A DNA stretch of 16,659 nt from a virus (Duplodnaviria > Heunggongvirae > Uroviricota > Caudoviricetes): IMG/VR virus record IMGVR_UViG_2690316176_000005; one strand, written 5' to 3'. The first letter of the stretch is position 1. The number at the start of each line of letters is the position of its first letter. Shown here piece by piece: positions 2,396 to 16,659 of this stretch. A program made the translations under genes and the position numbers. Under the pieces are notes generated by a model, which worked only from the letters and a program-made list of their open reading frames with translations, searched no databases and was not told the DNA's origin.

Positions 2396-3517
2396 TTAGT
2401 CATCAACCGCGACTCCTGCACAATCATGGGCTATTGCCAGCAATTGTTTTTTAATTGCTTTAGCATCTACCGTCATATCTACTGTAGCAAAATGGATCTT
2501 ATGTCCCTGAGTGACAACATACTCATTAAGCATATAGCCAACAGCTGGATGAAGTAGAAGACCAGCGGCATTGAGCGAAAGCGGATCCGTCTTGTTCTCC
2601 TGTGTTCTAAGGTAGGTATATAGCTGATAAATATAGCCATTACGTAGTGATTGCTCCCGATGCCAACCCTTTGTCAGAATCGAATTAAATTTGGTATCGA
2701 TAATAATACGCCGCTGGGCAGTCTTGTGTTCCAGAATAATGTCTGACTTCATTGTCGGGAAAATCTCTGCACTACCTGCACTTTGATCGCTCAACGCCCA
2801 TTTCAGCTCTTTCCCTGCAGAGACCTGCCAAGTTGTTTTGGCAAGGTGTACACGATATAAGCCAGCGATACCTTTTTCAAATAGTCTTCTCATCCAGTAA
2901 AGGTTATTTGAGGGCGCAGGTAAAAGATATTGGCCTTGATCTTCGGTCGGCATCAGCAGTTCAAAAGCTAATCGTGCGGCATCGACCATCGGTTTATCTG
3001 CGGCATCATGGCGTCCAAAACGCCACACTGAGGGTAATTCGCGGGGGGCAGGATATCCTCCATTTATCCCCTCACGGCGAAGTGATATTGCCATAAAATG
3101 GCAATCTGCCGCCAAAGACGGTTTCACTATGATTGAGGCCAGACGTTCTAACGCACAGCGAACATAGCGATTTCGGGGGGTGTTGAGGGTTATGTCTTGA
3201 AAATGGCAGGCAACCTGTCCCCGTTCCAGCAGTTGATGACTGGCAGTATACAGTATGTCAATGCGCCCTCTCACCCGGTTCAGGGCCGCATGACAAGTTT
3301 GGTATCCCATATTTAAATTGCGACGTCGGCGCAGCGTAATCTCATGAAGGAGGATTGTCGCCACCAGGTCGGGGATTTCTGCTGGGTTATCTTCTACTGC
3401 GATCTGATTGCGCCCTAACTGGCGAAACAGATCTGAAGCGTACAGCATCAGCATCCAGATATTTCGCATGGGAATACGTGATGCTGTATGTTGCTCACTC
3501 CCGGTTATTGTCGTCAT
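2396..3517 (-). CDS. mcrC: McrC-family type IV restriction endonuclease subunit (PD-(D/E)xK nuclease), 373 aa
   Basis: N-terminal IPMRNIWMLMLYASDLF resembles McrC IPVRNIYYMLTYAWGYL. The C-terminal IIIDTKFNS...LRNGYIYQLYTYL resembles the McrC catalytic region IVDAKYYKS...QNLYQLMNYL. The ATG overlaps the upstream gene's stop (ATGA), indicating translational coupling. Confidence 0.8.
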   Translation of the reverse strand: MTTITGSEQHTASRIPMRNIWMLMLYASDLFRQLGRNQIAVEDNPAEIPDLVATILLHEITLRRRRNLNMGYQTCHAALNRVRGRIDILYTASHQLLERGQVACHFQDITLNTPRNRYVRCALERLASIIVKPSLAADCHFMAISLRREGINGGYPAPRELPSVWRFGRHDAADKPMVDAARLAFELLMPTEDQGQYLLPAPSNNLYWMRRLFEKGIAGLYRVHLAKTTWQVSAGKELKWALSDQSAGSAEIFPTMKSDIILEHKTAQRRIIIDTKFNSILTKGWHREQSLRNGYIYQLYTYLRTQENKTDPLSLNAAGLLLHPAVGYMLNEYVVTQGHKIHFATVDMTVDAKAIKKQLLAIAHDCAGVAVDD

Positions 3518-5496
3518 TTTGCTAATAACACTTTTCTGGCTTCATCGACTTTATTTGGAGCATCGAACCAATATTCGGCGAGCAAAGGGCAGATCTCTGT
3601 ATCAACGACTTGTTCATACCAAGCCTGGGCATCGTTGATTTTTTGGCCGATAGCTGGGGTGACATAGCTGTGACCGATACAAAACTGTGGTCCTAAGGTA
3701 ACATCTTTTGCCAGCATATCGTTTAATACCGTCAGTCGAGATTTGATGAATGCTAACATGTCAAAATCAATTGCGTAATTATAATTTACCCAGTTTCTCC
3801 ACGCGTCATTAAAAGCTGGCTTTAGATCGATAAACGCGAAACGACGGCGCAGCGCTAGGTCAAGTAGTGCGAGTGAGCGGTCTGCAATATTCATCGTACC
3901 GATGATATATAGATTCTCAGGAATGTATATTTTTTCATCAGCATTTTTAGGATAGGAAAGAGATAATGCCTCAGTCGGCGTGCGTTTATCTGCTTCCATC
4001 AACGTGAGTGTTTCACCGAAGATTTGCGCCGGATTGCCACGATTAATCTCTTCAATTATCACCACATATTTCGAGGTAGGATTATTGACTGCAGTTTTGA
4101 TTGCATTTACAAAAGGTCCATCAATTAGCGTCAATTGCCCTTCTTTACCTGGACGCCAGCCTCGAATAAAGTCTTCGTAAGAGAGGTTCGGGTGAAATTG
4201 CACCGCGCTAATACGCTCAGGTGCTTTTTCTCCCATCAAGCAGTACGCCAGACGTCGCGCTAACCAAGTTTTTCCAGTTCCGGGTGGTCCTTGTAATATC
4301 AGGTTTTTCTTGTCGATCAGGCGCTGAAGTGTGAGTTGGATCTTAGCCTCTTCCAAGAAACAGCCATCCTGCACCAGATGACTGATGTCATAAGGAACGT
4401 GGGTGAGTTTTGGCAACAGCGCACTCTCTTCGACAGTTTCCTCAGTTATCGTCTGGGATTCGTTTTTCTCAAAATTCAGGTATTCATAATTTCCGGACTC
4501 GAGGGACTTTAACTCATCATCATTGCATAGTTTCTGTAGATAAAAGTAGATTGAGCTTGTAACAGTTTTGCTCTCAGGATGCTCTACCTTGAATACGTCC
4601 AAGTAGTTTTCTTCCAACTCCGAAGCAGTGAAATAAGGGCCATTTTTTTTCAGGCATAACGCCTTAATTTTATTCAGTAAAGAGGCTTTCCACGTTCTAT
4701 TTGCCACCTCATCTTTAGACTGGCTAAGATCTGTATTCCACGCTGATAAGGAAAGTTCTGGGAAAGAATGAACCGGATAGTTTGGTTGGGTAAAGACCTC
4801 GTTCAGCGCCCGCATAAGACTCAGGTAACTTTGTCCACTACAGCGACCTTTTGCCCCGTTTTTAATGATCTTAATGTTTAACACTGTCTGAATGTAATAC
4901 TGCGACTGGCTATCTAAAGTGGGGTAGAACCAAGGACGGGTCCAGTACAACCCCATGGTGAGATTCCAACCGACATTCATTACTGTAGAAGCGATGTCAT
5001 ATGCGGCAGTGAAGTCTGCAGAGTTAGTATTCTGGTTATCCGCAAAGATCATTGCCTGTGAGAACATTTCCCACAAGCATTCAATGTCATTAGGGTCGCG
5101 TGACTTTTCATAACCAAAGAACCAAGATTTTTGGTTATTCAACAGAGGGATTCCGGCAAAGGAGTCAGGAATCGGTTCGTTCACGCCCAACAAATTCGCT
5201 AGCTTGGCAGCAATAATTTTGCGATTGCTGTCGGTCAAGTTACGATTGAACAAGCCCATAGTAGTAAACGGACAAATGTCTTTTAAGGGAAAGATCTCTC
5301 CCATAATAGATTTGTCCTGCAGATGGGACATTCCTTCCACACCCGAGGCAATTAGATGAATACCTTTGACTAATTCATCTCTACGATTTCGCCAAGTCAG
5401 TAACGCGTTGGCAAAAGCCTCATAAAAACTAGCCCAAGCAAACTTGCCATCATGTTCTGCTGTATCCACGGGAACTCCATTATACTTGTTGAGCAA
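3514..5496 (-). CDS. mcrB: McrB-family AAA+ GTPase with a long (~365 aa) non-canonical N-terminal domain, 660 aa
   Basis: Walker A LILQGPPGTGKTW. The VVIIEEINRGNPAQIFGE and IIGTMNIADRSLALLDLALRRRFAFIDL motifs are almost the same as McrB MIIDEINRANLSKVFGE and MNTADRSLAVVDYALRRRFSF, including the NxxD GTP-specificity motif. The N-terminal region has no similarity I recognise to the McrB 5mC-binding domain. The called start is TTG at 5494-5496; an in-frame GTG at 5467-5469 with a GGAG 5 nt upstream is an alternative. Confidence 0.85.
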   Translation of the reverse strand: MLNKYNGVPVDTAEHDGKFAWASFYEAFANALLTWRNRRDELVKGIHLIASGVEGMSHLQDKSIMGEIFPLKDICPFTTMGLFNRNLTDSNRKIIAAKLANLLGVNEPIPDSFAGIPLLNNQKSWFFGYEKSRDPNDIECLWEMFSQAMIFADNQNTNSADFTAAYDIASTVMNVGWNLTMGLYWTRPWFYPTLDSQSQYYIQTVLNIKIIKNGAKGRCSGQSYLSLMRALNEVFTQPNYPVHSFPELSLSAWNTDLSQSKDEVANRTWKASLLNKIKALCLKKNGPYFTASELEENYLDVFKVEHPESKTVTSSIYFYLQKLCNDDELKSLESGNYEYLNFEKNESQTITEETVEESALLPKLTHVPYDISHLVQDGCFLEEAKIQLTLQRLIDKKNLILQGPPGTGKTWLARRLAYCLMGEKAPERISAVQFHPNLSYEDFIRGWRPGKEGQLTLIDGPFVNAIKTAVNNPTSKYVVIIEEINRGNPAQIFGETLTLMEADKRTPTEALSLSYPKNADEKIYIPENLYIIGTMNIADRSLALLDLALRRRFAFIDLKPAFNDAWRNWVNYNYAIDFDMLAFIKSRLTVLNDMLAKDVTLGPQFCIGHSYVTPAIGQKINDAQAWYEQVVDTEICPLLAEYWFDAPNKVDEARKVLLAK

Positions 5497-6414: not shown

Positions 6415-9263
6415 TATGCAAGCCTCACAATGTAGTTAAATGCGATGTTTTTGACGGTGTTTTCCGCGTTACCAGCAGCGTTAACGGTGATGGTGTGTCC
6501 ATGTGAGCCAATCGCAACGGAGTGCGTATGAGCACCAATACCGACAGTATGTGCATGTGCGCCTGCGCTTGCAGCAGTGCCGGACAGCGAGTGGGTATGA
6601 GCACCATCTGATGATGTCTTCCCTGCATTACGAGTCTGGCCACTACCGCTTGTTGTGCTCATAATCCCCGCGCTTAGATTTGAAATCGCGGTATAACCAT
6701 TAGGGAAAATGCTCGTGTTCGTGCCACCAAATGCACCGGAACTCTTGTGTTGGTGCGCACCGGCACTATTTGCGGTCCCGCTAATACTATGGGTATGCGC
6801 CCCGGTGTTATTCGTGGATTTGGTTCCGTAATCAAACGACGATGTGGTTTTCGTCCCCAAATCCGTACTGGATGCGCTGGCGCTGTGGGTGTGCGATTTA
6901 ATGCCGTCCTGTTCCTGAGACAATACGGCCCGACCACTGGCAGGTTTGCCCTTAATCGTCCAGCCACGCATATCAGGGATCACGCCTGACGGATAAGCGG
7001 CTGCAAGTTTCGGGTAAGCAGATTTGTCAAAAGTCTGCCCCTGCATCAGGGCATAACCAGACGGAACGGTATCTGATGGCCACGGGATTGGTGCGCCGAC
7101 TGGGTAGCTTTCTGGTGGAAGATTTTTCGAGGTATAAACTTCTGCCCAGCCTTCCTCAAAACCATAACCGTCTCTTGAAGAACGGTAGAACAGACCACCA
7201 TTTCTGTAATGCGCCTTCATCTGCAGGGTCCGGCAACTTCCGACTCCGGTATAGAAGTTAACCAGAATATAGCTGTCGCCAGAGCGGGTGACATTGTAAG
7301 CGCCTGATTCGGCATTCCAGGGAACGCCACCATCCGCATCGGCATATGTATCCGTTGCCCTTCTGGCAAAAGCAGCCACATGCGCGGCGGTTAAAGTAAT
7401 ATCTTTGGAACCATCAAATGGAACACCGGATATTTTTCTTGCAGTCTGGAGTTTTGTAGCAGTTGCAGCATTACCAGTGGTGTTCTGATTACCCGTAGTG
7501 TTTACACCTGGAAGGTTAATATTTGCAGAACCGTCGAAAACAACTCCACCGATAGATCTTGCCGTCTGCAATTTCGTGGCTGTACTTGCATTACCATTCA
7601 ATGAACCAGTTAATCCACCTGTAACAGACAACGGACCTGAAACTGTTCCTCCGGTTGTTGGCAGTGCTCCAATATCTGATGGTGTAGGTTTCTGATGTGA
7701 GCTATACATCGTATAAACAACACCATAGGTAACGCTGGAAGGCTTACTCGCTGAATATGTTGGCGAGGTATAAACAGAAACTGACGCATTTGCAGTACAA
7801 TCCCAATGGATATTTACACTCGTCGCATAATTGCCAATCTCAACGTAAATATCATATGTATCGCCGGATGTGTTGATCCAGGCGAAATTCGTTAATCCGA
7901 CGGCTGTACGCTTCCACAAAGCCCCGGTAATTCCTTTGGGGTTTCCATTGCCTGCTCGTAGAACCAGTTCTGAAATGCCTGCCTGATGTGGGGAACCGAC
8001 GTTGTAACCAGCGCCACCAATCAATGCGATGTAAACGATGGAACTCGCTTGTGGCATGGTAACCGTAGCCAGTTTGAACCACCCAGCCCCGCCAGAGAAA
8101 GACATCGTTACTGAATTTAAAGTACCAATATCTTTCGGCGTTAATGTTATATCCGCAGTCAGTGCTTTTCCGTTAACTTTTCGGTTAGATGGCACCCTGC
8201 TATTCGCATTGTCATTGGCTGCTTTAACTGCTTTTGGCGTTGCGGCCAGCGATTCACTGGTGCTATCAACAGCACTGCTAAGTTTCACAACACCTTTAGT
8301 TGTAAGGCTTGCGTCTTCCATCGCAACTGCACCGGCAATCTCTTCAGCACGATCAGCAGCAGCTTCCGCACGGGTCGCAGCGGATTCAGCAGTAGTTTTG
8401 CTCTGAGATGCCGCCGTCGCACTGCCAGCTGCCTCTGTCGCCTTCGTGGATGCTGTCGTGGCGCTGCCTTTCGCTGCTGATGCCTGTCTGCTCGCCTCAT
8501 CTTTTGAAGCAGACGCAGATGATGCCGATGACGCCGCCGAACTGGCGGACGATGCAGCTGCCATTTTTGAGGATTCTGCACTGGTTTCCGAGGCTTTCGC
8601 GTTCGTTTCGGATGTCTTCGCTGCGGATGCAGACCTCGCTGCTGCGCTGGCCTGTTCAGCGGCTTCGCCAGCCTTCGTTGTGGCTGTTGAAGCAGACGAT
8701 GCGGCGCTTTCTGCCGATTTTCCGGCGGCGGTGGCACTGGCTGAGGCCTGCCCGGCACTTGTTGACGCGGCACTGGCAGACGACGCAGCCGCTGTTTTTG
8801 AGCCTGCCGCAGCCGAGGCGCTCTGTCCCGCTGCCGTTTCAGAAGACCTGGCGTTTGTCTCAGACGTCTTTGCCGCCTTCGCGGAATTGCCTGCCGCCGT
8901 TGCCGAGGAAGCGGCACTACTGGCGCTTGATGATGCGTTCGTTTCTGATGATTTCGCTGCCTCTTTTGAGGCCGCCGCATCCCGGGCTGAGGTGGCTGCT
9001 TCTGACGCCTTCGTGGTCGCGGCGGATGCAGAAGTGGCTGCTGATTGTTGTGACGCTGCCGCATTCGTTTCTGACGTTTTCGCCGCACCGGCACTGGTAG
9101 CTGCCGCGCTTTTTGAGGACTCTGCAGCAGCACTTTTTGCTGCTTCACGGGCCTTTGTCGATGCCGTTCCTGCGCTGGAAGACGCTGACTGAGCCGACGA
9201 CGCGGCCTGTCCGGCTGACGTGCTGGCGGCACGTGCTGAGCCTGCAGCATCGGTTATTACCAC
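6414..9263 (-). CDS. stf: Side tail fibre protein (lambda Stf family), 5'-truncated, 949 codons in frame
   Basis: Ala/Ser/Thr-rich repeats (AAKTSETNA...), the conserved [20 protein letters not shown] segment, and a C-terminus ([46 protein letters not shown]...[49 protein letters not shown]) that matches lambda Stf. The roughly 130 N-terminal residues of lambda Stf are absent; the ORF-track start is a GTG immediately after an in-frame stop. Confidence 0.85.
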
Positions 9264-10113
9264 TTCCCGGATCGCTATACGCTATTCCGTTAAAGATAAT
9301 GGGCGGAATAATGATTTGACGGTCAAAGTTATGATCATCGCTGATGGTGACTGTAACCGTCCCGTTTGGTGTTTCCGTATTACCCCACGTACCAGCCTGT
9401 TTCGGGAATGATTTGGATACAGCTTTAACGAAGTCACCTCTGACCTGAGTCGCCTCCAGCATGCCCTTAATCGTACAGTTTTCATTTACCGTGACATTGT
9501 TGAGCGTCCCGGCGTTCGCATTCACACTGCCACTGATATCCGCATTTTTAGCGGTCAGCTTTCCGTCCGGTGTCAGGGAAAATGCCGGTGGATTTCCACC
9601 GCTGGTAATGGTGGGGGCCGTCAGGCGTTTCAGGAACACGTCGTTCATGAATATCTGATCGCCCTGACCAACAAACATCGGTTTTGTGTTGCCATTCGCA
9701 GGATTAACCATCGCAATCCTGTCCGCCGCCAGCAGCACCTGACTCTGCATGCCGTCAGGGGTGTTCTCAATATCCACGATGGCCTCTTTTTCCGGTACAT
9801 GCTGCACGGCGGTGATGGCATACGTGCCGTCATCGTTCTCACGGATACTCACGCAGCGGAACAGGCGCTGGCGCAACGTCGGCAGCTTCAGCCCCCATAC
9901 GCTGTATTCAGCAACGCCGTCAGGAACACGGCTCACTTTCACCTTCACGCCGTCGGTGACGGACTGAACCTCCACGCTGACCGGACTCCCCTGCCCGTCA
10001 ACCAGGCTTATCAGCGTGGTGCCGGAAGATGGCAGCGTGATTTCACGGTCGAGCGTCAGCGTCCGGGTCTGGCTGTTTACCGCCAGCACGCGCCCGCCGG
10101 TGCGGATACCCAA
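9145..10113 (-). pseudogene. J: Remnant of tail-tip / host-specificity protein J: a middle segment joined to a C-terminal segment, with internal deletion
   Basis: [99 protein letters not shown] and ...[46 protein letters not shown]... match lambda J from memory. The several hundred residues that separate these blocks in lambda are missing. The N-terminus is absent, the called start is TTG, and the reading frame runs into stf. Confidence 0.75.
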
Positions 10114-10331
10114 GCTGGAGTGGCGAACGTTTTACCCTTGCTGATGAGGTATTCACTGATTTCGCTGTACCACATGTGGCTGAGTGCATTCTGGGAAAGA
10201 CTGCGTCTCTCGCGCCACGGTTTAAGCACCATGCGAAAGCATTTGCCGTCCTCCAGATAAGGCTGGATCTGCCGACCGATAGCGGTGAAGTTACCGCGAT
10301 GCAATTTGATACCATCTTGTGGGAGGTTCAC
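10077..10331 (-). pseudogene. 5' fragment (~76 codons) of a NinB-family (lambda nin-region) gene, truncated at the junction with the J remnant
   Basis: GTG start with a strong SD (GGAGGTGAAGC-GTG). The motif WRERRSLSQNALSHMWYSEIS resembles lambda NinB ERNRSLDQNRKLWACLGDVS. The ORF ends inside J-homologous DNA. Confidence 0.5.
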
Positions 10332-10525
10332 GCTTCACCTCCGCAGAGATCAAACGCTGGATGCAAAATATCGCAGGTGCATTTCTGCATCTGTGAATGG
10401 AGAAGAGAGGTTGGATTGTATGTGCGCATAAACGTCCCCGTTTAGCGCAGAAGTCACCGGAGTTGTTCAGGCCCCAATGGCATGATTATGGCTGGTTGAT
10501 TATTGGAAATCAAATGTGCTGAAAA

Positions 10526-11035
10526 TTAGTCTGCCAAGTCTTCCTCAGTCGCAACTGGGTAATTCCAAATATCAAAAAAAGCTATAGCCTCCTGCCATTT
10601 GCTCCATAAGTTATCAAGTACTTGTGTAGGTTCCGTACTTTTAAAAACAGAATCAGCCGCATCACCGTTATGAACTTCCTCGTACAGTTCCATTATTAGC
10701 AGATTAACAAAGTACTGTTTCAACATTAATGCCTGATTACCTTCTTTCTGCTGGCTATCCTGCTTGATGATCTCCATCGCCCGTACTAGGCACCTGATGA
10801 TATCCGCTGCATCATTAACGCTCCATTCAGATCCGCGCTTATCTTTAGCTGATGAATTGGCTCTCTCAGCGCAAGCCTTTAAAGACTCATAAAGGTAAAC
10901 TCTATTTTGTAGCTGCAGCGCTTTTTTTGACGTGTACCAACTTGCAAGCGCCGACCCCGCTGCGGCTAATGTGCCAAACGCAGAAATACCTGCTGCTATT
11001 GCACTTAAGTCGGCACTGTCAAAGTTCCACATCAT
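10526..11035 (-). CDS. Hypothetical moron protein, 169 aa, with one predicted N-terminal transmembrane helix
   Basis: Intact ATG ORF in an AT-rich segment. The N-terminal hydrophobic stretch DLSAIAAGISAFGTLAAAGSALASWY is followed by a charged soluble region. A terminator from the upstream unit lies at 11212-11250, so this gene probably has its own promoter. Confidence 0.55.
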   Translation of the reverse strand: MMWNFDSADLSAIAAGISAFGTLAAAGSALASWYTSKKALQLQNRVYLYESLKACAERANSSAKDKRGSEWSVNDAADIIRCLVRAMEIIKQDSQQKEGNQALMLKQYFVNLLIMELYEEVHNGDAADSVFKSTEPTQVLDNLWSKWQEAIAFFDIWNYPVATEEDLAD

Positions 11036-11211
11036 CGTTACACCTTATATAAATACCCCTCAGTAATATCCAATAAGGTATGTGCACAATCAATATAATT
11101 TTATCCGTATCGGCACATAGCGATTTGAACGCTACTGGTAATGGTATATTTTAGATTATATCGTCCAGTTTACAGCACCCGTATTTTATGAAATGGACTC
11201 GCATATTACCC

Positions 11212-11250
11212 AAAAAATGCCAGCACTTCCGTCATCGTAGAATGCTGGCA
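11212..11250 (-). terminator. Rho-independent terminator (perfect 8-bp stem tgccagca/tgctggca, 17-nt loop, then T6 on the minus strand)
   Basis: Minus-strand sequence: tgccagca ttctacgatgacggaag tgctggca tttttt. Confidence 0.55.
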
Positions 11251-11293
11251 GTATTTCTAACTAGTGACTTTATTGGAACAGATTCTGACGGAA

Positions 11294-11593
11294 TTATGGT
11301 AACACTCGACTCCACTTATCATCCAGCCACGGCTGGAATTTTACATGTGCCGTTTCTCTGGCGAGGATTGCTCGCGCTCTGTTGAGTATCTGGGGATATT
11401 CTTGCTCGATAGAAGTAAAGCGGCCGGCTTCGCGGTGCTCCGCAACCTGAAGTAGTGGAGTAACGTTCTGGCAGGCAGTTAACATCACATCACCTGCTCG
11501 CCATAACCAAGCACGTGCACAAAGTTTGTTATCAGTGAATTGTTTTGTGATTGGGTATTGTTGAACTGCTAGAACGAGAACGCCAGCATCCAT
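11294..11593 (-). CDS. Hypothetical protein, 99 aa (low confidence)
   Basis: ATG with an AGGGA 6-10 nt upstream; followed downstream by the 11212-11250 terminator. No family recognised. Confidence 0.3.
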   Translation of the reverse strand: MDAGVLVLAVQQYPITKQFTDNKLCARAWLWRAGDVMLTACQNVTPLLQVAEHREAGRFTSIEQEYPQILNRARAILARETAHVKFQPWLDDKWSRVLP

Positions 11594-11704
11594 TGGCAGT
11601 CCCTATAGTAAAACCATAGCTCAGGACGCTTCGTTCAGGATAGATAATTTTATTGTACTTACCTAACTTTCTTACTATAGCACGGTTGAAAAAGTGATTA
11701 TTAC

Positions 11705-13231
11705 TCAAAAATAAACCTCACCATCAACCATATATTTGAGAGTACTTATCGCCTGCTGGGCGGATATTGTTTTCATTAAAGGATAGTGTTTAAAAACAAT
11801 GCCATTCATAAAATAGATATCACAGGTTTTATTATCTGTATTGATTATGATTTTTTCGAATGTTTTATAGGCAAGTGTACGACATAGCTCTCGCCCATTT
11901 TTACTGGTTAAGTCAATAGCATGAAAATCACCAAGTGAACTCACCGCTTTACTCTTCAAAGTTTTTAATGATACAGAAGCCCTTCGTAATTCCTTATCTA
12001 ATACTCTGATTTTTTCTGCTATAGCGGTAACTTCAGGCGCAACAGATAATGCAGCAATTAAATTATTAATTTTCATCTGGAGCTCAATAATTTTCAACTC
12101 TAAAGTTTCATTAGCATCTTTCTTGTTTTCAACTGGTTGGATTTTACTACAATTAAAAAGCAACTCATTAATGATATTATAATCAACCAAATCTCTCTTT
12201 ATTGATGGCCTGTCACATCGATGCAGTCTTCTCATCGGACAAACATAATAGCCATGCAAACTTCCAGATACCGCATGAACAATCATGGTATTACCACAAG
12301 CCTCGCACTTCATAACTGTTCGAAGTAGATTTATCAACATAGGATTTTTGCTACTATTGCTAATACCAAAAGGTGCCAACCGAATTTCCTGCACAGCGTA
12401 AAACAAATCATCTGATATGACTCTGGGATAATAGCCAGCGATTTCACTTATTCCTTTACCTCTTGCACGATATGAAGGTACGCATATACCTATCAGAGCT
12501 TTATTCGCTAATAATTTTTCAATTACAGAAGGTCCCCATGCACTTTCTTTTCCTGAGAAATTCTTTACAGCATGATCATTTAAATACTTGGCTATTGCAT
12601 TCAATGAGCGCCTTTCCATCCTGAGTTTAAAAATTAGCTCAATAGTTTTCACCCTGTCGGGGTCTGGAACAAAAGCCGTTCTTTTGTCATCCAATGAGAG
12701 CCATCTCGGACAAGACGCCGTCATAATCGTGCCTGACTCCAGTGCATCCTGCCGTTTTTTCTTCCATGATAATTTAACCCGACTTGACTTTATCTCGCTT
12801 TCTTCATTTGCCCTTTGTGCTATAAGTATGGCTTTTATTAATGAATATGGCTCATTCAATGAGTCAATATTATAGACTGTATTATCGCAAAGAGTTATAA
12901 CATCAATACCGTGATTCAAAATCAATTTCAGACGCTCAATCGCCTCACCGACTTTTTCTCTTGAAAGTCTGTCCAGACTTTCAACTAACAATGTAGTCCC
13001 TGGCAATATATAACCATGTTCTATAGCATCTAAAAATTCCGAAAAAGCTCCTGATTGTGCATGCTTTCCATTGAATGCGCTTAACCCCAAATCTTCATAC
13101 GTTACGGTATCAAGGTAATAATCACTATTTACCTTTAGCCATTCAGTAATAAGCCTTCTCTGGCGGTTTAATGAATCACCAGACATCTGACTTGGTGATG
13201 AAAATCGCATATATGCTATGGCTTTTTTCAT
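11705..13231 (-). CDS. ybcK: Large serine recombinase (resolvase/invertase-type catalytic domain, recombinase domain and Cys-rich zinc ribbon), 508 aa; YbcK-like as in prophage DLP12
   Basis: N-terminal AIAYMRFSSPSQ...GDSLNRQ carries the serine-recombinase catalytic Ser/Arg motifs. A C-x2-C...C-x-C cluster (MKCEACGNT...YYVCPMRRLHRC) is present. Its size and position next to emrE-ren-P match the DLP12 arrangement. Confidence 0.8.
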   Translation of the reverse strand: MKKAIAYMRFSSPSQMSGDSLNRQRRLITEWLKVNSDYYLDTVTYEDLGLSAFNGKHAQSGAFSEFLDAIEHGYILPGTTLLVESLDRLSREKVGEAIERLKLILNHGIDVITLCDNTVYNIDSLNEPYSLIKAILIAQRANEESEIKSSRVKLSWKKKRQDALESGTIMTASCPRWLSLDDKRTAFVPDPDRVKTIELIFKLRMERRSLNAIAKYLNDHAVKNFSGKESAWGPSVIEKLLANKALIGICVPSYRARGKGISEIAGYYPRVISDDLFYAVQEIRLAPFGISNSSKNPMLINLLRTVMKCEACGNTMIVHAVSGSLHGYYVCPMRRLHRCDRPSIKRDLVDYNIINELLFNCSKIQPVENKKDANETLELKIIELQMKINNLIAALSVAPEVTAIAEKIRVLDKELRRASVSLKTLKSKAVSSLGDFHAIDLTSKNGRELCRTLAYKTFEKIIINTDNKTCDIYFMNGIVFKHYPLMKTISAQQAISTLKYMVDGEVYF

Positions 13232-13486
13232 GGTGACACCTGCTAAAGTATGCTTTTATAAACCTTAGTGGTGAGATATGATTTTTGTTTAATTTTTATT
13301 TAAAAAGACAATTAAGGTCACATTATCTTGAATATACAACAATAATCGTATTGCAATTTTCTTACACCATAATCTTGAAAGCACAAAAGAATGAATAAAA
13401 ACTAAAGACATTAACAAAAAGCATAAAACGAGGCCCATATAAATATACGAGCCTCCATATTTTAGTCGTTTAAAAACAAATTATTT

Positions 13487-13819
13487 TTAATGTGGTGTGC
13501 TTCGTGACAATAAATTAATAACCAACACACCGGCACAAATCAACATCATGCCTATAATGGCTGGCAGGTCCAACCGTTGGCCGAAAAATCCCCATGATAG
13601 TAAGCTAATCAGGACAATACCGACTCCTGACCAGATAGCATAAGCAATCCCTGTAGGAATATAAGCCAGCGTCTGAGCTAATAACCAGAATGATGCACAA
13701 TAACAAATAATTGTACCAACAGATGGCCATAACCGTGTAAAACCTTCTGAAAACTTCATTAAGGTTGTACCAATGACCTCTGCAAGTATTGCACCACCAA
13801 GATAAATATAAGGATTCAT
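13487..13819 (-). CDS. emrE: Small multidrug resistance (SMR) efflux transporter EmrE, 110 aa
   Basis: MNPYIYLGGAILAEVIGTTLMKFSEGFTRLWPSVGTIICYCASFWLLAQTLAYIPTGIAYAIWSGVGIVLISLLSWGFFGQRLDLPAIIGMMLICAGVLVINLLSRSTPH matches EmrE. The ORF-track ORF extends 18 codons upstream, but the true start is the internal ATG at 13817-13819. Confidence 0.9.
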   Translation of the reverse strand: MNPYIYLGGAILAEVIGTTLMKFSEGFTRLWPSVGTIICYCASFWLLAQTLAYIPTGIAYAIWSGVGIVLISLLSWGFFGQRLDLPAIIGMMLICAGVLVINLLSRSTPH

Positions 13820-13886
13820 AGCATATTCTTTCCTGTTCAAACTGGAGAGAATTGTACTACAGTTTGAACTCAACTCACCTGTTTCA

Positions 13887-14189
13887 TCATTGTGTACCCA
13901 TTGATGTTCTTTTATATACCCTCAATACCCGTTTCATCGCGGCACTCTGGCGACACTCCTTAAAAATCAAATTCGTGCTCACCTTTCCTTCCCATTCTTC
14001 TCTGGTAGCGAACCGATAATACACCGTTCGCCAGACCTTACCATCAACGACCAGGATTCCTGCCCGCGCCATTTTAGCCGCAGCCTGATTTATGCTGGTT
14101 ACCGTTGCGCCTGTTACCGCGGCAACGTCCTGCGCACAGAATTTCTTATGAGTCCCCAGGTAATGAATAATTGACTCTTTGCCCGTCAT
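13887..14189 (-). CDS. ren: Lambda Ren-like protein (Rex exclusion escape), 100 aa
   Basis: MTGKESIIHYLGTHKKFCAQDVAAVTGATVTSINQAAAKMARAGILVVDGKVWRTVYYRFATRE... matches lambda Ren from memory. Its start overlaps the P stop, as in lambda. Confidence 0.75.
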   Translation of the reverse strand: MTGKESIIHYLGTHKKFCAQDVAAVTGATVTSINQAAAKMARAGILVVDGKVWRTVYYRFATREEWEGKVSTNLIFKECRQSAAMKRVLRVYKRTSMGTQ

Positions 14190-14887
14190 ACCCTTGCTCC
14201 TTTCAGCCCAAACTTAGCTTTGATTTCTGCGATCTTCGCCAGAGCCTGTGCACGATTTAGAGGTCTACCGCCCATGACAGGAAGTTGTTTTACTGGTTCA
14301 GGTATAGCCTCACCACGGTTAATTCGTGCGGTCATACAGGACAGTTCATCGGCAGCCTTGCGCCGTAATTCCGCGTCAGTCAACGCATTGGCCCGCATGT
14401 TCTGATACAGGTTGGTAACCAGCCAGTAGTGCGCGTTTGATTTCCACGGATAAGACTCTGCATCCGGATACAGCCCGCGCTTCCGGCAATACTCGTAAAC
14501 CATATCAACCAGCTCGCTGGCGTTTGGCAGCCCGGCGGTAACGGATGCTTCTTCCCGGCACCAGGCGACAAACTGCCCGGGTGATGGCAGGAATGGTCGA
14601 TTCTGCCGACGGGCTACGCGCATTCCAGCGTTAACCTGTTCCATTGTGGTGATCCCGTTTTCCCGAAAAGCCAGCACCCACTGGCGGCGGATTTCGTTCA
14701 GTTCATTCTGGTCACGGTTAGCCAGGCTCGCCGGGAAAGTTGCCAGTAACTGGCTGAACACACCGTTGATGATCTGCGCTACCTGCTGTACCTGTGGCTT
14801 TTCGTCGTACTGTTCCGGCATGTTGTTGGCGATCCGACGCATCTGCTCACGGTCAAAGTTAACCATCTGTGCGGCGATGTTTTTCAT
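14186..14887 (-). CDS. P: Lambda replication protein P (DnaB helicase loader), 233 aa, apparently intact
   Basis: MKNIAAQMVNFDREQMRRIANNMPEQYDEKPQVQQVAQIINGVF...AKIAEIKAKFGLKGARV is near-identical to lambda P as I recall it. The start overlaps the O stop. Confidence 0.9.
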   Translation of the reverse strand: MKNIAAQMVNFDREQMRRIANNMPEQYDEKPQVQQVAQIINGVFSQLLATFPASLANRDQNELNEIRRQWVLAFRENGITTMEQVNAGMRVARRQNRPFLPSPGQFVAWCREEASVTAGLPNASELVDMVYEYCRKRGLYPDAESYPWKSNAHYWLVTNLYQNMRANALTDAELRRKAADELSCMTARINRGEAIPEPVKQLPVMGGRPLNRAQALAKIAEIKAKFGLKGARV

Positions 14888-15168
14888 AGATCCACCCCGT
14901 AAATCCAGTCAGTGTTTGTCAGGTCGAGTTTTGGTTTGCCGACTGTCACGCCAGCCTGTTGCTTGTTCCGGTTGATTTCGAGCTGGGTCCACTTGTCGCG
15001 GAGTTTGGCCGGACTCAGCACGTTACCGGACCAGAAGTTGTCCTGGCAGGCCCAGCGGAACAGTACACACATGTCGCGGTGGTTACGTCCATCACGTTCA
15101 CGCATCAGACGGATATCGTTACCGGGATCGACGTGAGAGCTGTCGAACAGGGGGATGATGCGTGGCAC
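14884..15168 (-). pseudogene. O: C-terminal fragment of lambda replication initiator O; the N-terminal ori-binding domain and ori iterons are absent
   Basis: ...[78 protein letters not shown] matches the O C-terminus from memory. Real O homology probably stops near 15110; codons above that are just the antisense of exo. No TCCCTCAAAACGAGGGA-type iterons were seen. Confidence 0.6.
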
Positions 15169-15774
15169 AAATTACGGCTCGGCGTCATCACCGCTTCAGA
15201 AGTTCACAACGTGATAGCAAAGCCCCGCTCAGGAAAGAAGTGGCCTGACATGAAAATGTCCTACTTCCACACCCTGCTTGCCGAGGTTTGCACCGGTGTG
15301 GCTCCGGAAGTTAACGCTAAAGCACTGGCCTGGGGAAAACAGTACGAGAACGACGCCAGAACCCTGTTTGAGTTCACTTCCGGCGTAAATGTTATTGAAT
15401 CCCCGATCATCTATCGCGACGAAAGTATGCGCACCGCCTGCTCTCCCGATGGTTTATGCAGTGACGGCAATGGCCTTGAACTGAAATGCCCGTTTACCTC
15501 CCGGGATTTCATGAAGTTCCGGCTCGGTGGTTTCGAGGCCATAAAGTCGGCTTACATGGCCCAGGTGCAGTACAGCATGTGGGTGACGCGAAAAGATGCC
15601 TGGTACTTTGCCAACTATGACCCGCGTATGAAGCGTGAAGGCCTGCATTATGTCGTGGTTGAGCGGGATGAAAAGTACATGGCGAATTTTGACGAGATGG
15701 TGCCGGAGTTCATCGAAAAAATGGACGAGGCACTGGCTGAAATTGGTTTTGTATTTGGGGAGCAATGGCGATGA
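15079..15774 (+). CDS. exo: Lambda exonuclease (Exo / Red-alpha), complete apart from the first ~3-6 codons and native start
   Basis: From about 15112 the translation ...[85 protein letters not shown]...[14 protein letters not shown] matches lambda Exo. The native ATG/RBS is replaced by the O' junction; the nearest in-frame start is GTG at 15079. Confidence 0.8.
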
Positions 15775-15929
15775 CGCATCCTCACGATAATATCCGGGTA
15801 GGCGCGATCACTTTCGTCTACTCCATTACAAAGCGAGGCTGGGTATTTCCCGGCCTTTCTGTTATCAGAAATCCACTGAAAGCACAGCGGCTGGCTGAGA
15901 AGATAAATAACAAACAGGAGGATATATGA
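15771..15929 (+). CDS. Small ORF, 52 aa, homologous to the lambda ORF immediately downstream of exo (orf60a-like)
   Basis: [52 protein letters not shown]; its ATG overlaps the exo stop (ATGA). The DNA matches the lambda post-exo sequence as I recall it up to about 15905-15920. Absent from the ORF track because it is under 60 aa. Confidence 0.5.
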
Positions 15930-16545
15930 GTCAGGTTGGTAATCATTCATTCGAATTTCCGGCATCGCAAGGTGTACAGGGTGGTACTGTTACACTCTTC
16001 CTTACCATACCAGGAAGATCGCTGGCTCGTTTCCTCGCTTCAGATAATTACGGCCATACACTGGAACGCTCTCAGCGAGAAATTAATCCAAATCGAGTAC
16101 GAAAATTTTTAAATTATCTCACTAACGCAGACTCAAGAAATGAGCCTTTTATCATTCCCCCTCTCGTAGGTAACTGTGATTCGAATATAGAATTTGTACC
16201 GTTTGGCAACACAAATGTTGGTATAGCCAGAATTCCCCTCGACGCCGAAATAAAACTTTTTGATGGTCAACATCGTGCAGCTGGCATTGAGATATTTTGC
16301 CGAAGTTCCCCATCAACGCTCATGGTTCCCATGATGCTTACAATGAATCTGCCGCTAAAAACCCGGCAGCAGTTCTTTTCGGACATAAATAACAACGTTT
16401 CTAAGCCATCAGCGACCATCAATATGGCGTATAACGGCCGGGATGATATTGCTCAGGGAATGATATCCTTCCTGACCCAACATACTGTATTTGCCGATAT
16501 AACCGATTTTGAACACAACGTAGTGCCATTAAAAAGTAATATGTG
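15926..16545 (+). pseudogene. DGQHR-motif (DndB-like, ParB/Srx-fold) protein gene, 3'-truncated by IS insertion at about codon 206
   Basis: ATG overlaps the preceding stop (ATGA). The conserved LFDGQHRAAGIEI motif lies at residues 112-120 (nt 16259-16285). The last 16 codons of the 222-aa track ORF are read from the IS left end, so the native C-terminus is missing. Confidence 0.6.
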
Positions 16546-16659
16546 TGAACCGCCCCGGGAATCCTGGAGACTAAACTTCCTGAGAAAGAGGTAAACAGGA
16601 TGACTAAAAATACTCGTTTTTCCCCCGAAGTCCGTCAACGGGCAGTCCGTATGGTTCTG
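16546..16659 (+). mobile_element. Left end of an IS3-family insertion sequence (IS629 / IS1203-like), partial; continues beyond the window
   Basis: Terminal TGAACCGCCCCGGGAATCCTGGAGACT..., followed after about 50 nt by an orfA start whose product matches IS629 OrfA from memory. Confidence 0.75.
16600..16659 (+). CDS. IS3-family transposase OrfA, N-terminal 20 codons (partial)
   Basis: MTKNTRFSPEVRQRAVRMVL matches the N-terminus of IS629/IS1203 OrfA as I recall it. Confidence 0.75.
   Translation, partial: MTKNTRFSPEVRQRAVRMVL

Follow-up and report, generated by a model that had tools for sequence, protein, structure and literature searches.

The 16,659-nucleotide stretch of viral DNA analysed here (IMG/VR record IMGVR_UViG_2690316176_000005; hereafter the window) ends in a phage gene of the DGQHR/DndB-like family that has been interrupted by an insertion sequence (IS). 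The 5' part of this gene lies at 15926..16545 on the plus strand and comprises codons 1-206 together with two bases of codon 207. Its ATG, at 15926-15928, shares the bases ATGA with the TGA (15927-15929) that ends the preceding open reading frame (ORF), a DUF1317 gene running from 15765 to 15929; this overlap, already noticed in a preliminary description of the window, is present exactly as reported. The family's eponymous motif occurs as FDGQHR at residues 112-117, encoded at 16259-16276.

The assignment to the DGQHR family, which the preliminary description had made from the motif, is borne out by profile searches. Residues 1-206 matched the DGQHR model TIGR03187 with an E value of 2.5e-44 and 152.1 bits, where the curated cut-off is 58.85 bits, and the Pfam DndB model PF14072 with an E value of 3.8e-36. 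The intact protein, known from other genomes, scored 188.9 bits against TIGR03187 and covered all 276 model positions. Against the DndB equivalog model TIGR03233 the intact protein reached 107 bits and the fragment 84.6 bits; since the equivalog cut-off is 328 bits, the protein is, by these scores, a member of the DGQHR family and not DndB proper. The retained fragment contains the whole of the N-terminal ParB/Srx-fold domain and the interdomain linker.

The window is identical to the intact gene of Escherichia coli FORC 064, without a single mismatch, as far as 16545, and diverges from it completely from 16546, where the IS629 terminal repeat TGAACCGCCCCGGG opens a new segment. This segment, 16546..16659 on the plus strand, is the left end of IS629, an element of the IS3 family, with the terminal inverted repeat TGAACCGCCCCGGGAATCC and the orfA ATG at 16600 (MTKNTRFSPEVRQRAVRMVL). 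All 114 bases are identical to IS629 copies, so that nothing differs in the visible part, and the element continues beyond the window. In Shigella flexneri pCP301 the matching stretch is annotated ‘IS629 ORF1’, and matches to the IS629 end are present in 2,927 plasmid records. The cut falls within codon 207 (TG|G, Trp), after its second base; the earlier suggestion of a truncation at about codon 206 by the left inverted repeat of an IS3-family element was therefore accurate. Translation across the junction gives a fusion ORF of 222 residues at 15926-16594 (as in the ORF list), the last part of which is an IS-encoded read-through tail at 16546..16594 on the plus strand, consisting of 16 codons (CEPPRESWRLNFLRKR) and a stop; the first, a Cys codon, is completed by the T of the IS. 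IS629 thus landed at the domain boundary, removing the helical domain and adding 16 IS-encoded residues.

The same 222-residue product is recorded on 14 public contigs, so the fusion allele is real and not an assembly artefact; GCA_001283945.1 and GCA_017117565.1 are examples of carriers. At the six such places that we read, the sequence comes from draft-genome or metagenome contigs, each breaking off within the fusion ORF or shortly past it, and the junction between the gene and IS629 was not found in complete E. coli genomes, where the best coverage ends at 16545. With the C-terminal domain gone, and the promoter region of the upstream operon deleted as well (see below), the copy in the window is almost certainly non-functional. 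The description of the locus as an insertionally inactivated DGQHR phage cargo gene is one in which we have high confidence. In itself the broken copy is ordinary, like other cargo genes that an IS has inactivated in prophages undergoing decay, and most of what follows concerns the intact gene.

Immediately upstream, the DUF1317 gene (lambda orf60a-like, 15765..15929, plus strand; PF07026 with an E value of 4.4e-31, and phrog_1998) has 54 codons and is the last gene with lambdoid homology. It is preceded by a 5'-truncated exo gene of the lambda-exonuclease family (15120..15774, plus strand; PF09588 YqaJ on the called gene), the upstream member of the early-left unit; in FORC 064, whose locus is identical, this gene carries the annotation ‘lambda exonuclease family protein’. 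Over 15120-15922 (to 15933 in one phage) the DNA is 98% identical to Shiga toxin (Stx) phages and other lambdoid phages. The matches thus stop at about 15922, within a few bases of the 15905-15920 originally estimated, and the DGQHR gene, starting at 15926, does begin at a mosaic boundary, as had been proposed. In the intact locus, the GC content drops from ∼53% in exo to 41-44% in the DGQHR gene. A promoter-like site on the strand of the gene was not found within 14800-15930; the gene is coupled by its overlap into the exo-orf60a early-left unit, with no promoter-like site of its own. In a lysogen, the early-left unit is repressed.

Among 5,426 complete genomes of E. coli, 284 have the gene at ≥99% identity, and in 282 of these the match extends over at least 80% of its length. 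The intact product has 354 residues (WP_000084449.1 / WP_001678641.1). In FORC 064 and in strain 042 the order is exo, DUF1317, the DGQHR gene, a gap of ∼150 bases, a TraR/DksA zinc-finger gene, DUF4222, excisionase, integrase and icd, whilst in complete prophages the canonical early-left genes lie upstream, ending with bet (261 residues), exo and DUF1317. About 80 bases past the intact stop codon, before the TraR/DksA gene, there is a terminator-like hairpin (GGAGCTACAGGCTCC followed by a run of T; L001:10164-10188). Disrupted copies recur: besides the copy in the window, there is one interrupted by IS1 (H57) and a few that are truncated.

The preliminary description had placed possible partner genes of a defence locus beyond the IS. 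This expectation failed, as in the intact loci of FORC 064 and 042 the 354-residue gene stands alone, with no dnd, dpd, ssp or nuclease genes beside it. More broadly, dnd, dpd or nuclease partners were not found within 8 kb in ∼120 related loci, save for a distant DpdA-like gene in two, and a PAPS-reductase homologue was not found in any DGQHR locus. The gene is therefore single-gene phage cargo, with no hidden multi-gene defence locus. It had also been foreseen that the defence idea would fall if intact homologues were solitary phage genes with a known non-defence function; they are indeed solitary phage genes, and a known non-defence function did not emerge for them.

The protein belongs to a conserved ParB-fold family with a wide distribution among temperate phages of Enterobacterales, Vibrio and their kin. 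An exhaustive search of 1.84 billion representatives returned 810 relatives at E ≤ 0.001, and ∼250 clusters at 53-73% identity are spread across Enterobacterales. The N-terminal domain has the ParB/Srx fold, and after it come ∼150 C-terminal residues that form a helical domain. Among 19 orthologues (52-72% identity), the strings RSQRE, FDGQHR and QFFSDINNNxSKP are invariant in the N-terminal half, as are YK..[IL]QFH, E306 and W314-G-x-C in the C-terminal half. Sequence searches for relatives of solved structure found none for the whole protein and none for the C-terminal profile. The C-terminal domain modelled alone (with a pLDDT, the predicted local distance difference test score, of 83) had no significant structural neighbour, and a helix–turn–helix (HTH) or other classical DNA-reading domain was not detected in the protein.

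The neighbourhoods of relatives also bear on function. We sampled 41 genomic and 80 viral loci with relatives of the gene (∼200 loci overall), calling and clustering their ORFs; recurrent neighbour clusters were annotated and singletons left out, so that the methyltransferase counts given here are lower bounds. Where the locus belongs to a phage or prophage, the gene is part of a temperate phage's early-left arm and has the recombination genes on one side and xis/int on the other. Except in the case of the E. coli allele, it is very often followed by a same-strand DNA methyltransferase gene at position +1 or +2; for those at +1, a 4-base overlap with the DGQHR gene is common. A downstream methyltransferase is present in at least 12 of 34 clusters dereplicated at 90% identity, and in at least 22 of the 29 loci of the largest cluster. 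Within ±8 kb, the methyltransferase genes are concentrated at +1 to +3, the rest being more than 4.8 kb upstream and on the other strand. As a control, only one of 67 DUF1317-positive E. coli loci lacking the DGQHR gene had a methyltransferase within 6 kb downstream.

The methyltransferases are of six kinds: MT-A70, Dam (PF05869), N6_N4, C5, D12 (Pfam) and a phrog_111 methylase. Examples of linked loci are L003:5073-6658 (Salmonella phage SPN1S, in which the DGQHR gene SPN1S_0033 neighbours the MT-A70 gene SPN1S_0032), L005:5992-9187, L044:8001-9891 and L094:8001-11729. In many Enterobacterales prophages a multi-HTH protein of 154-179 residues (phrog_323, ‘D5-like regulator’) is encoded between the DGQHR and methyltransferase genes, for instance at L097:1166-1630 and L091:9046-9585; it shows weak similarity to GcrA and to sigma-70 region 4. 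Longer relatives of the DGQHR protein (427-460 residues, 37-43% identity) are encoded among PsiA, ArdB/KlcA-type antirestriction, RadC, DUF1281, DUF5431 and DUF4942 genes (L021:5280-11478, L018:7124-11010), which is the establishment, leading-region-like gene set of conjugative and integrative elements.

Further evidence comes from the site that the gene occupies in E. coli lambdoid prophages, a swappable slot of the early-left (gam-bet-exo-orf60a) operon. There the DUF1317 and TraR/DksA zinc-finger genes form conserved flanks, with an interval of 582/591, 1074, 1218 or 2802 bases between them, and the cargo starts at or just past the DUF1317 stop codon; in most of the loci read, the two have that codon's final base in common. 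In 78 sampled loci, the commonest cargo was DUF1382 plus phrog_303, of the lambda orf63/orf61 type (52 loci), followed by a TGT/DpdA-like protein of 250 residues (phrog_887, E value 4e-99; 17 loci), the DGQHR gene (11 loci) and a 414-residue protein of the PAPS-reductase family (PF01507, phrog_424; 4 loci). The last of these shows weak similarity to the DndC and QueC models. Three of the four cargo types are homologous to components of the DNA-modification systems Dpd and Dnd, so that the slot alternates the DGQHR gene with homologues of two other DNA-modification enzymes. The corresponding slots in sister prophages (L165:2818-3570, L164:6162-7406 and L137:6162-6651) are equivalent to the window from 15926 onward. 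In two E. coli-type DGQHR loci a DpdA-like gene (266 residues; L052:11021-11821 and L059:10916-11716) also lies five genes downstream in the same operon, its product being 37% identical to the slot-borne DpdA-like protein.

Several characterised systems provide points of comparison. DndB (TIGR03233/PF14072) shares with the phage protein the DGQHR family and motif, the alignment spanning positions 3-305 of a 355-position model, and in both proteins an N-terminal ParB/Srx-fold domain precedes a helical C-terminal one. Unlike DndB, the window-type gene has no dndA/C/D/E or dndFGH nearby and lies inside a phage early operon without a promoter of its own. DndB, the regulator of the dndBCDE phosphorothioation operon, represses dndCDE (PMC4507180), this control being described as ATP-modulated in the account of Xia 2019 that is cited in PMC10164549, and a DndB-like protein binds ATP and GTP (bioRxiv 10.1101/2025.10.10.680097). 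DpdB is built in a similar way, with a ParB-like NTPase domain at the N terminus and a helical domain at the C terminus; its ATPase activity is stimulated by DNA, and DpdA requires DpdB in order to modify DNA (PMC10164549). It accompanies a DNA-modifying enzyme, just as many phage DGQHR genes precede one, and the two loci with a distant DpdA-like gene add to the likeness. However, the DpdB motif is DGQQR and not DGQHR, the phage gene is not adjacent to a dpdA gene, its partners are methyltransferases of six kinds with no transglycosylase, and directly beside the E. coli allele no enzyme is encoded at all.

ParB-fold domains are also found fused to methyltransferases in phages and prophages (bioRxiv 10.1101/2025.10.10.680097; PMC5512222). 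Such proteins (PF02195 with N6_N4 and others) combine a ParB/Srx module with an orphan methyltransferase in prophage early regions, and the DGQHR–methyltransferase gene pairs look like an unfused form of them, although the family there is PF02195 and here DGQHR/PF14072, the genes here are separate, and the phage protein has an extra helical domain. The DUF262-DUF1524 type IV or phosphorothioate-sensing nucleases GmrSD, SspE and BrxU are weak structural neighbours; the C-terminal DUF1524/His-Me nuclease domain of these proteins was not found here.

Taking these observations together, we tentatively suggest, as a reading that is quite possible and short of probable, that the intact protein is an early-expressed, nucleoside triphosphate (NTP)-gated DNA-binding factor that assists or tunes the modification of phage DNA against restriction. 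The protein would be made early in infection or on induction, and be absent from the lysogen; the gene sits where phages put genes for the first minutes of infection. Its DGQHR pocket would bind an NTP, like DndB, DpdB, SspE and ParB, and the NTP-bound protein might then engage DNA as a dimer. NTP binding is suggested by the invariant arginine of the motif and by the precedents of DndB-like proteins, DpdB and SspE. Covalent modification of the phage genome would thereby be supported or tuned, allowing escape from host restriction. For many relatives, the modifying enzyme would be the DNA methyltransferase whose gene comes next downstream. In E. coli, where no enzyme is encoded alongside, the protein would have to work with host enzymes or enzymes encoded elsewhere, or have an enzyme-independent role at the DNA level. 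If true, this would add an accessory layer, so far unstudied, to the ways in which phages modify their own DNA against restriction, parallel to DpdB and the ParB–methyltransferase fusions. The modification-themed slot and the recurrent DGQHR–methyltransferase linkage are the findings that merit further work, and the proposed role would be cheap to test, as the gene pair is available in phage isolates, SPN1S among them.

A number of points weigh against this proposal. About two-thirds of the dereplicated clusters have no recognised methyltransferase nearby (singleton neighbours being unannotated), and the control set was narrow, consisting of close E. coli relatives only. A methyltransferase is never beside the intact form of the window allele, and a methyltransferase homologue was not found in the window. 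One DGQHR cluster, at 90% identity or more, pairs with four unrelated methyltransferase families, which argues against a specific protein–protein partnership; a link at the level of DNA, or a thematic one, fits better. A shared ‘theme island’ fits the methyltransferase pairing as well as true functional coupling does. We infer NTP and DNA binding from family precedent only. The family phrog_7901, which the protein matches end to end (E value 7e-216), is listed as ‘unknown function’, and our literature searches found neither a study of this phage subfamily nor a paper that mentions its accessions.

A defence role was the other reading considered from the outset: the protein would be a prophage anti-phage gene, with a ParB-like NTPase fused to an effector-like helical domain, which would sense or attack DNA or RNA entering from outside and so exclude superinfecting phages. 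The DGQHR/DUF262 ParB-like clade does include the nucleases GmrSD, SspE and BrxU, which are among the weak structural neighbours, and Makarova et al. (PMC3632139) described DndB as ParB-like plus HEPN, in a clade linked to abortive infection (Abi) systems. In keeping with this, the C-terminal string YKRDYIQFH, of the form K-[R/K]-x5-H, resembles the HEPN Rx4-6H motif; however, the Arg of this putative motif is Lys in 5 of 19 orthologues, and the HEPN assignment is not confirmed here because the modelled C-terminal domain had no significant structural neighbour. No effector fold was detected. The gene is variable cargo and shares its element with an McrBC-like system, but no promoter-like site serves it alone, and its overlap ties it to an operon that the lysogen keeps silent. 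A search of PADLOC-DB 2.0 matched only the DndB model (E value 4.3e-37), with no partner gene and one chance-level defence match among the neighbours, and the recurrent neighbours of relatives are methyltransferase and antirestriction genes, not defence genes. We therefore regard a defence function as rather unlikely.

As a DndB-type regulator, the protein would be an NTP-modulated repressor of downstream cargo, comparable to the controller protein of a restriction–modification system. That cargo would be the methyltransferase in other phages, or TraR/DksA-DUF4222-xis-int in E. coli. DndB represses dndBCDE by binding palindromes in the dnd promoter (PMC4507180), under control that is described as ATP-modulated in the citation just mentioned, the phage protein aligns over most of the length of the DndB models, the multi-HTH ‘D5-like regulator’ between the DGQHR and methyltransferase genes suggests a regulatory module, and the E. 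coli gene is followed by a gap of 150 bases with the terminator-like hairpin. Yet autoregulation would require a promoter that the gene does not possess, an operator could not fit between the DGQHR and methyltransferase genes where they overlap by 4 bases, and an HTH or classical DNA-reading domain was not detected, so that we think this role improbable. It is also quite improbable, in our estimation, that the protein acts as a stand-alone counter-defence factor, a DndB/DpdB mimic that would interfere with host Dnd, Ssp or Dpd immunity or bind or drain a nucleotide signal. The E. coli allele is solitary, yet in 282 of its 284 carriers at least 80% of the gene is preserved at ≥99% identity, DpdA-like and PAPS-reductase/DndC-like proteins take the same slot in sister prophages, and distant relatives are found among the antirestriction genes of conjugative-element establishment regions. 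This evidence is entirely contextual, however; the high identity within E. coli may reflect recent common descent and not selection, and IS-broken or truncated copies recur.

A broader extension of the proposed role in DNA modification, which we consider doubtful, is that the slot as a whole may be a dedicated modification or counter-restriction cassette site, filled in turn by DndB-, DpdA- and DndC-like proteins. The DGQHR proteins would then form a new NTP-gated accessory class that tunes or loads orphan modifying enzymes or, where solitary, subverts host Dnd/Dpd immunity.

The remainder of the window is a decayed, mosaic and defective lambdoid prophage at the e14-type (icd) site. At its right-hand side, ren and the gene for replication protein P precede a C-terminal fragment of the replication protein O gene (14884-15168, minus strand), which adjoins the 5'-truncated exo in opposite orientation at ∼15120. 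The segment 14884-15170 is thus a rearrangement junction, and the same junction is present in FORC 064. In lambda, the genes between O and exo are cII-cro-cI-N-cIII-gam-bet. The O-to-exo region is missing from the window, and the early-left unit has therefore lost pL/N/cI/gam/bet. Window positions 6542-14789 (8.2 kb) are absent from the FORC 064 locus, which is 100% identical on both flanks; the window therefore represents a less-deleted state of the same element.

On the left, a DUF1398 gene is followed by an ORF of 107 codons (1105-1428), which falls in a stretch that aligns with the FORC 064 locus at its iraM flank. Further right are genes for tail-fibre assembly and the tail fibre, and a fragment encoding the C terminus of J. 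At 11705-13873 on the minus strand are genes for a serine recombinase of 508 residues (Resolvase, Recombinase and Zn-ribbon domains) and a small multidrug resistance (SMR)/EmrE-like efflux protein. These two genes are usually associated with DLP12, and here they are at the icd site. An origin from DLP12, which emrE, ren and P would suggest, was rejected given the iraM flank, the icd fragment and the icd-linked identity to FORC 064. Between the 107-codon ORF and the tail-fibre assembly gene, at 2396-5496 on the minus strand, an McrC-like gene (PF10117) and a gene for an AAA_5 ATPase of 660 residues form an McrBC-like type IV restriction pair, and the same pair is present in FORC 064 and in strain 042.

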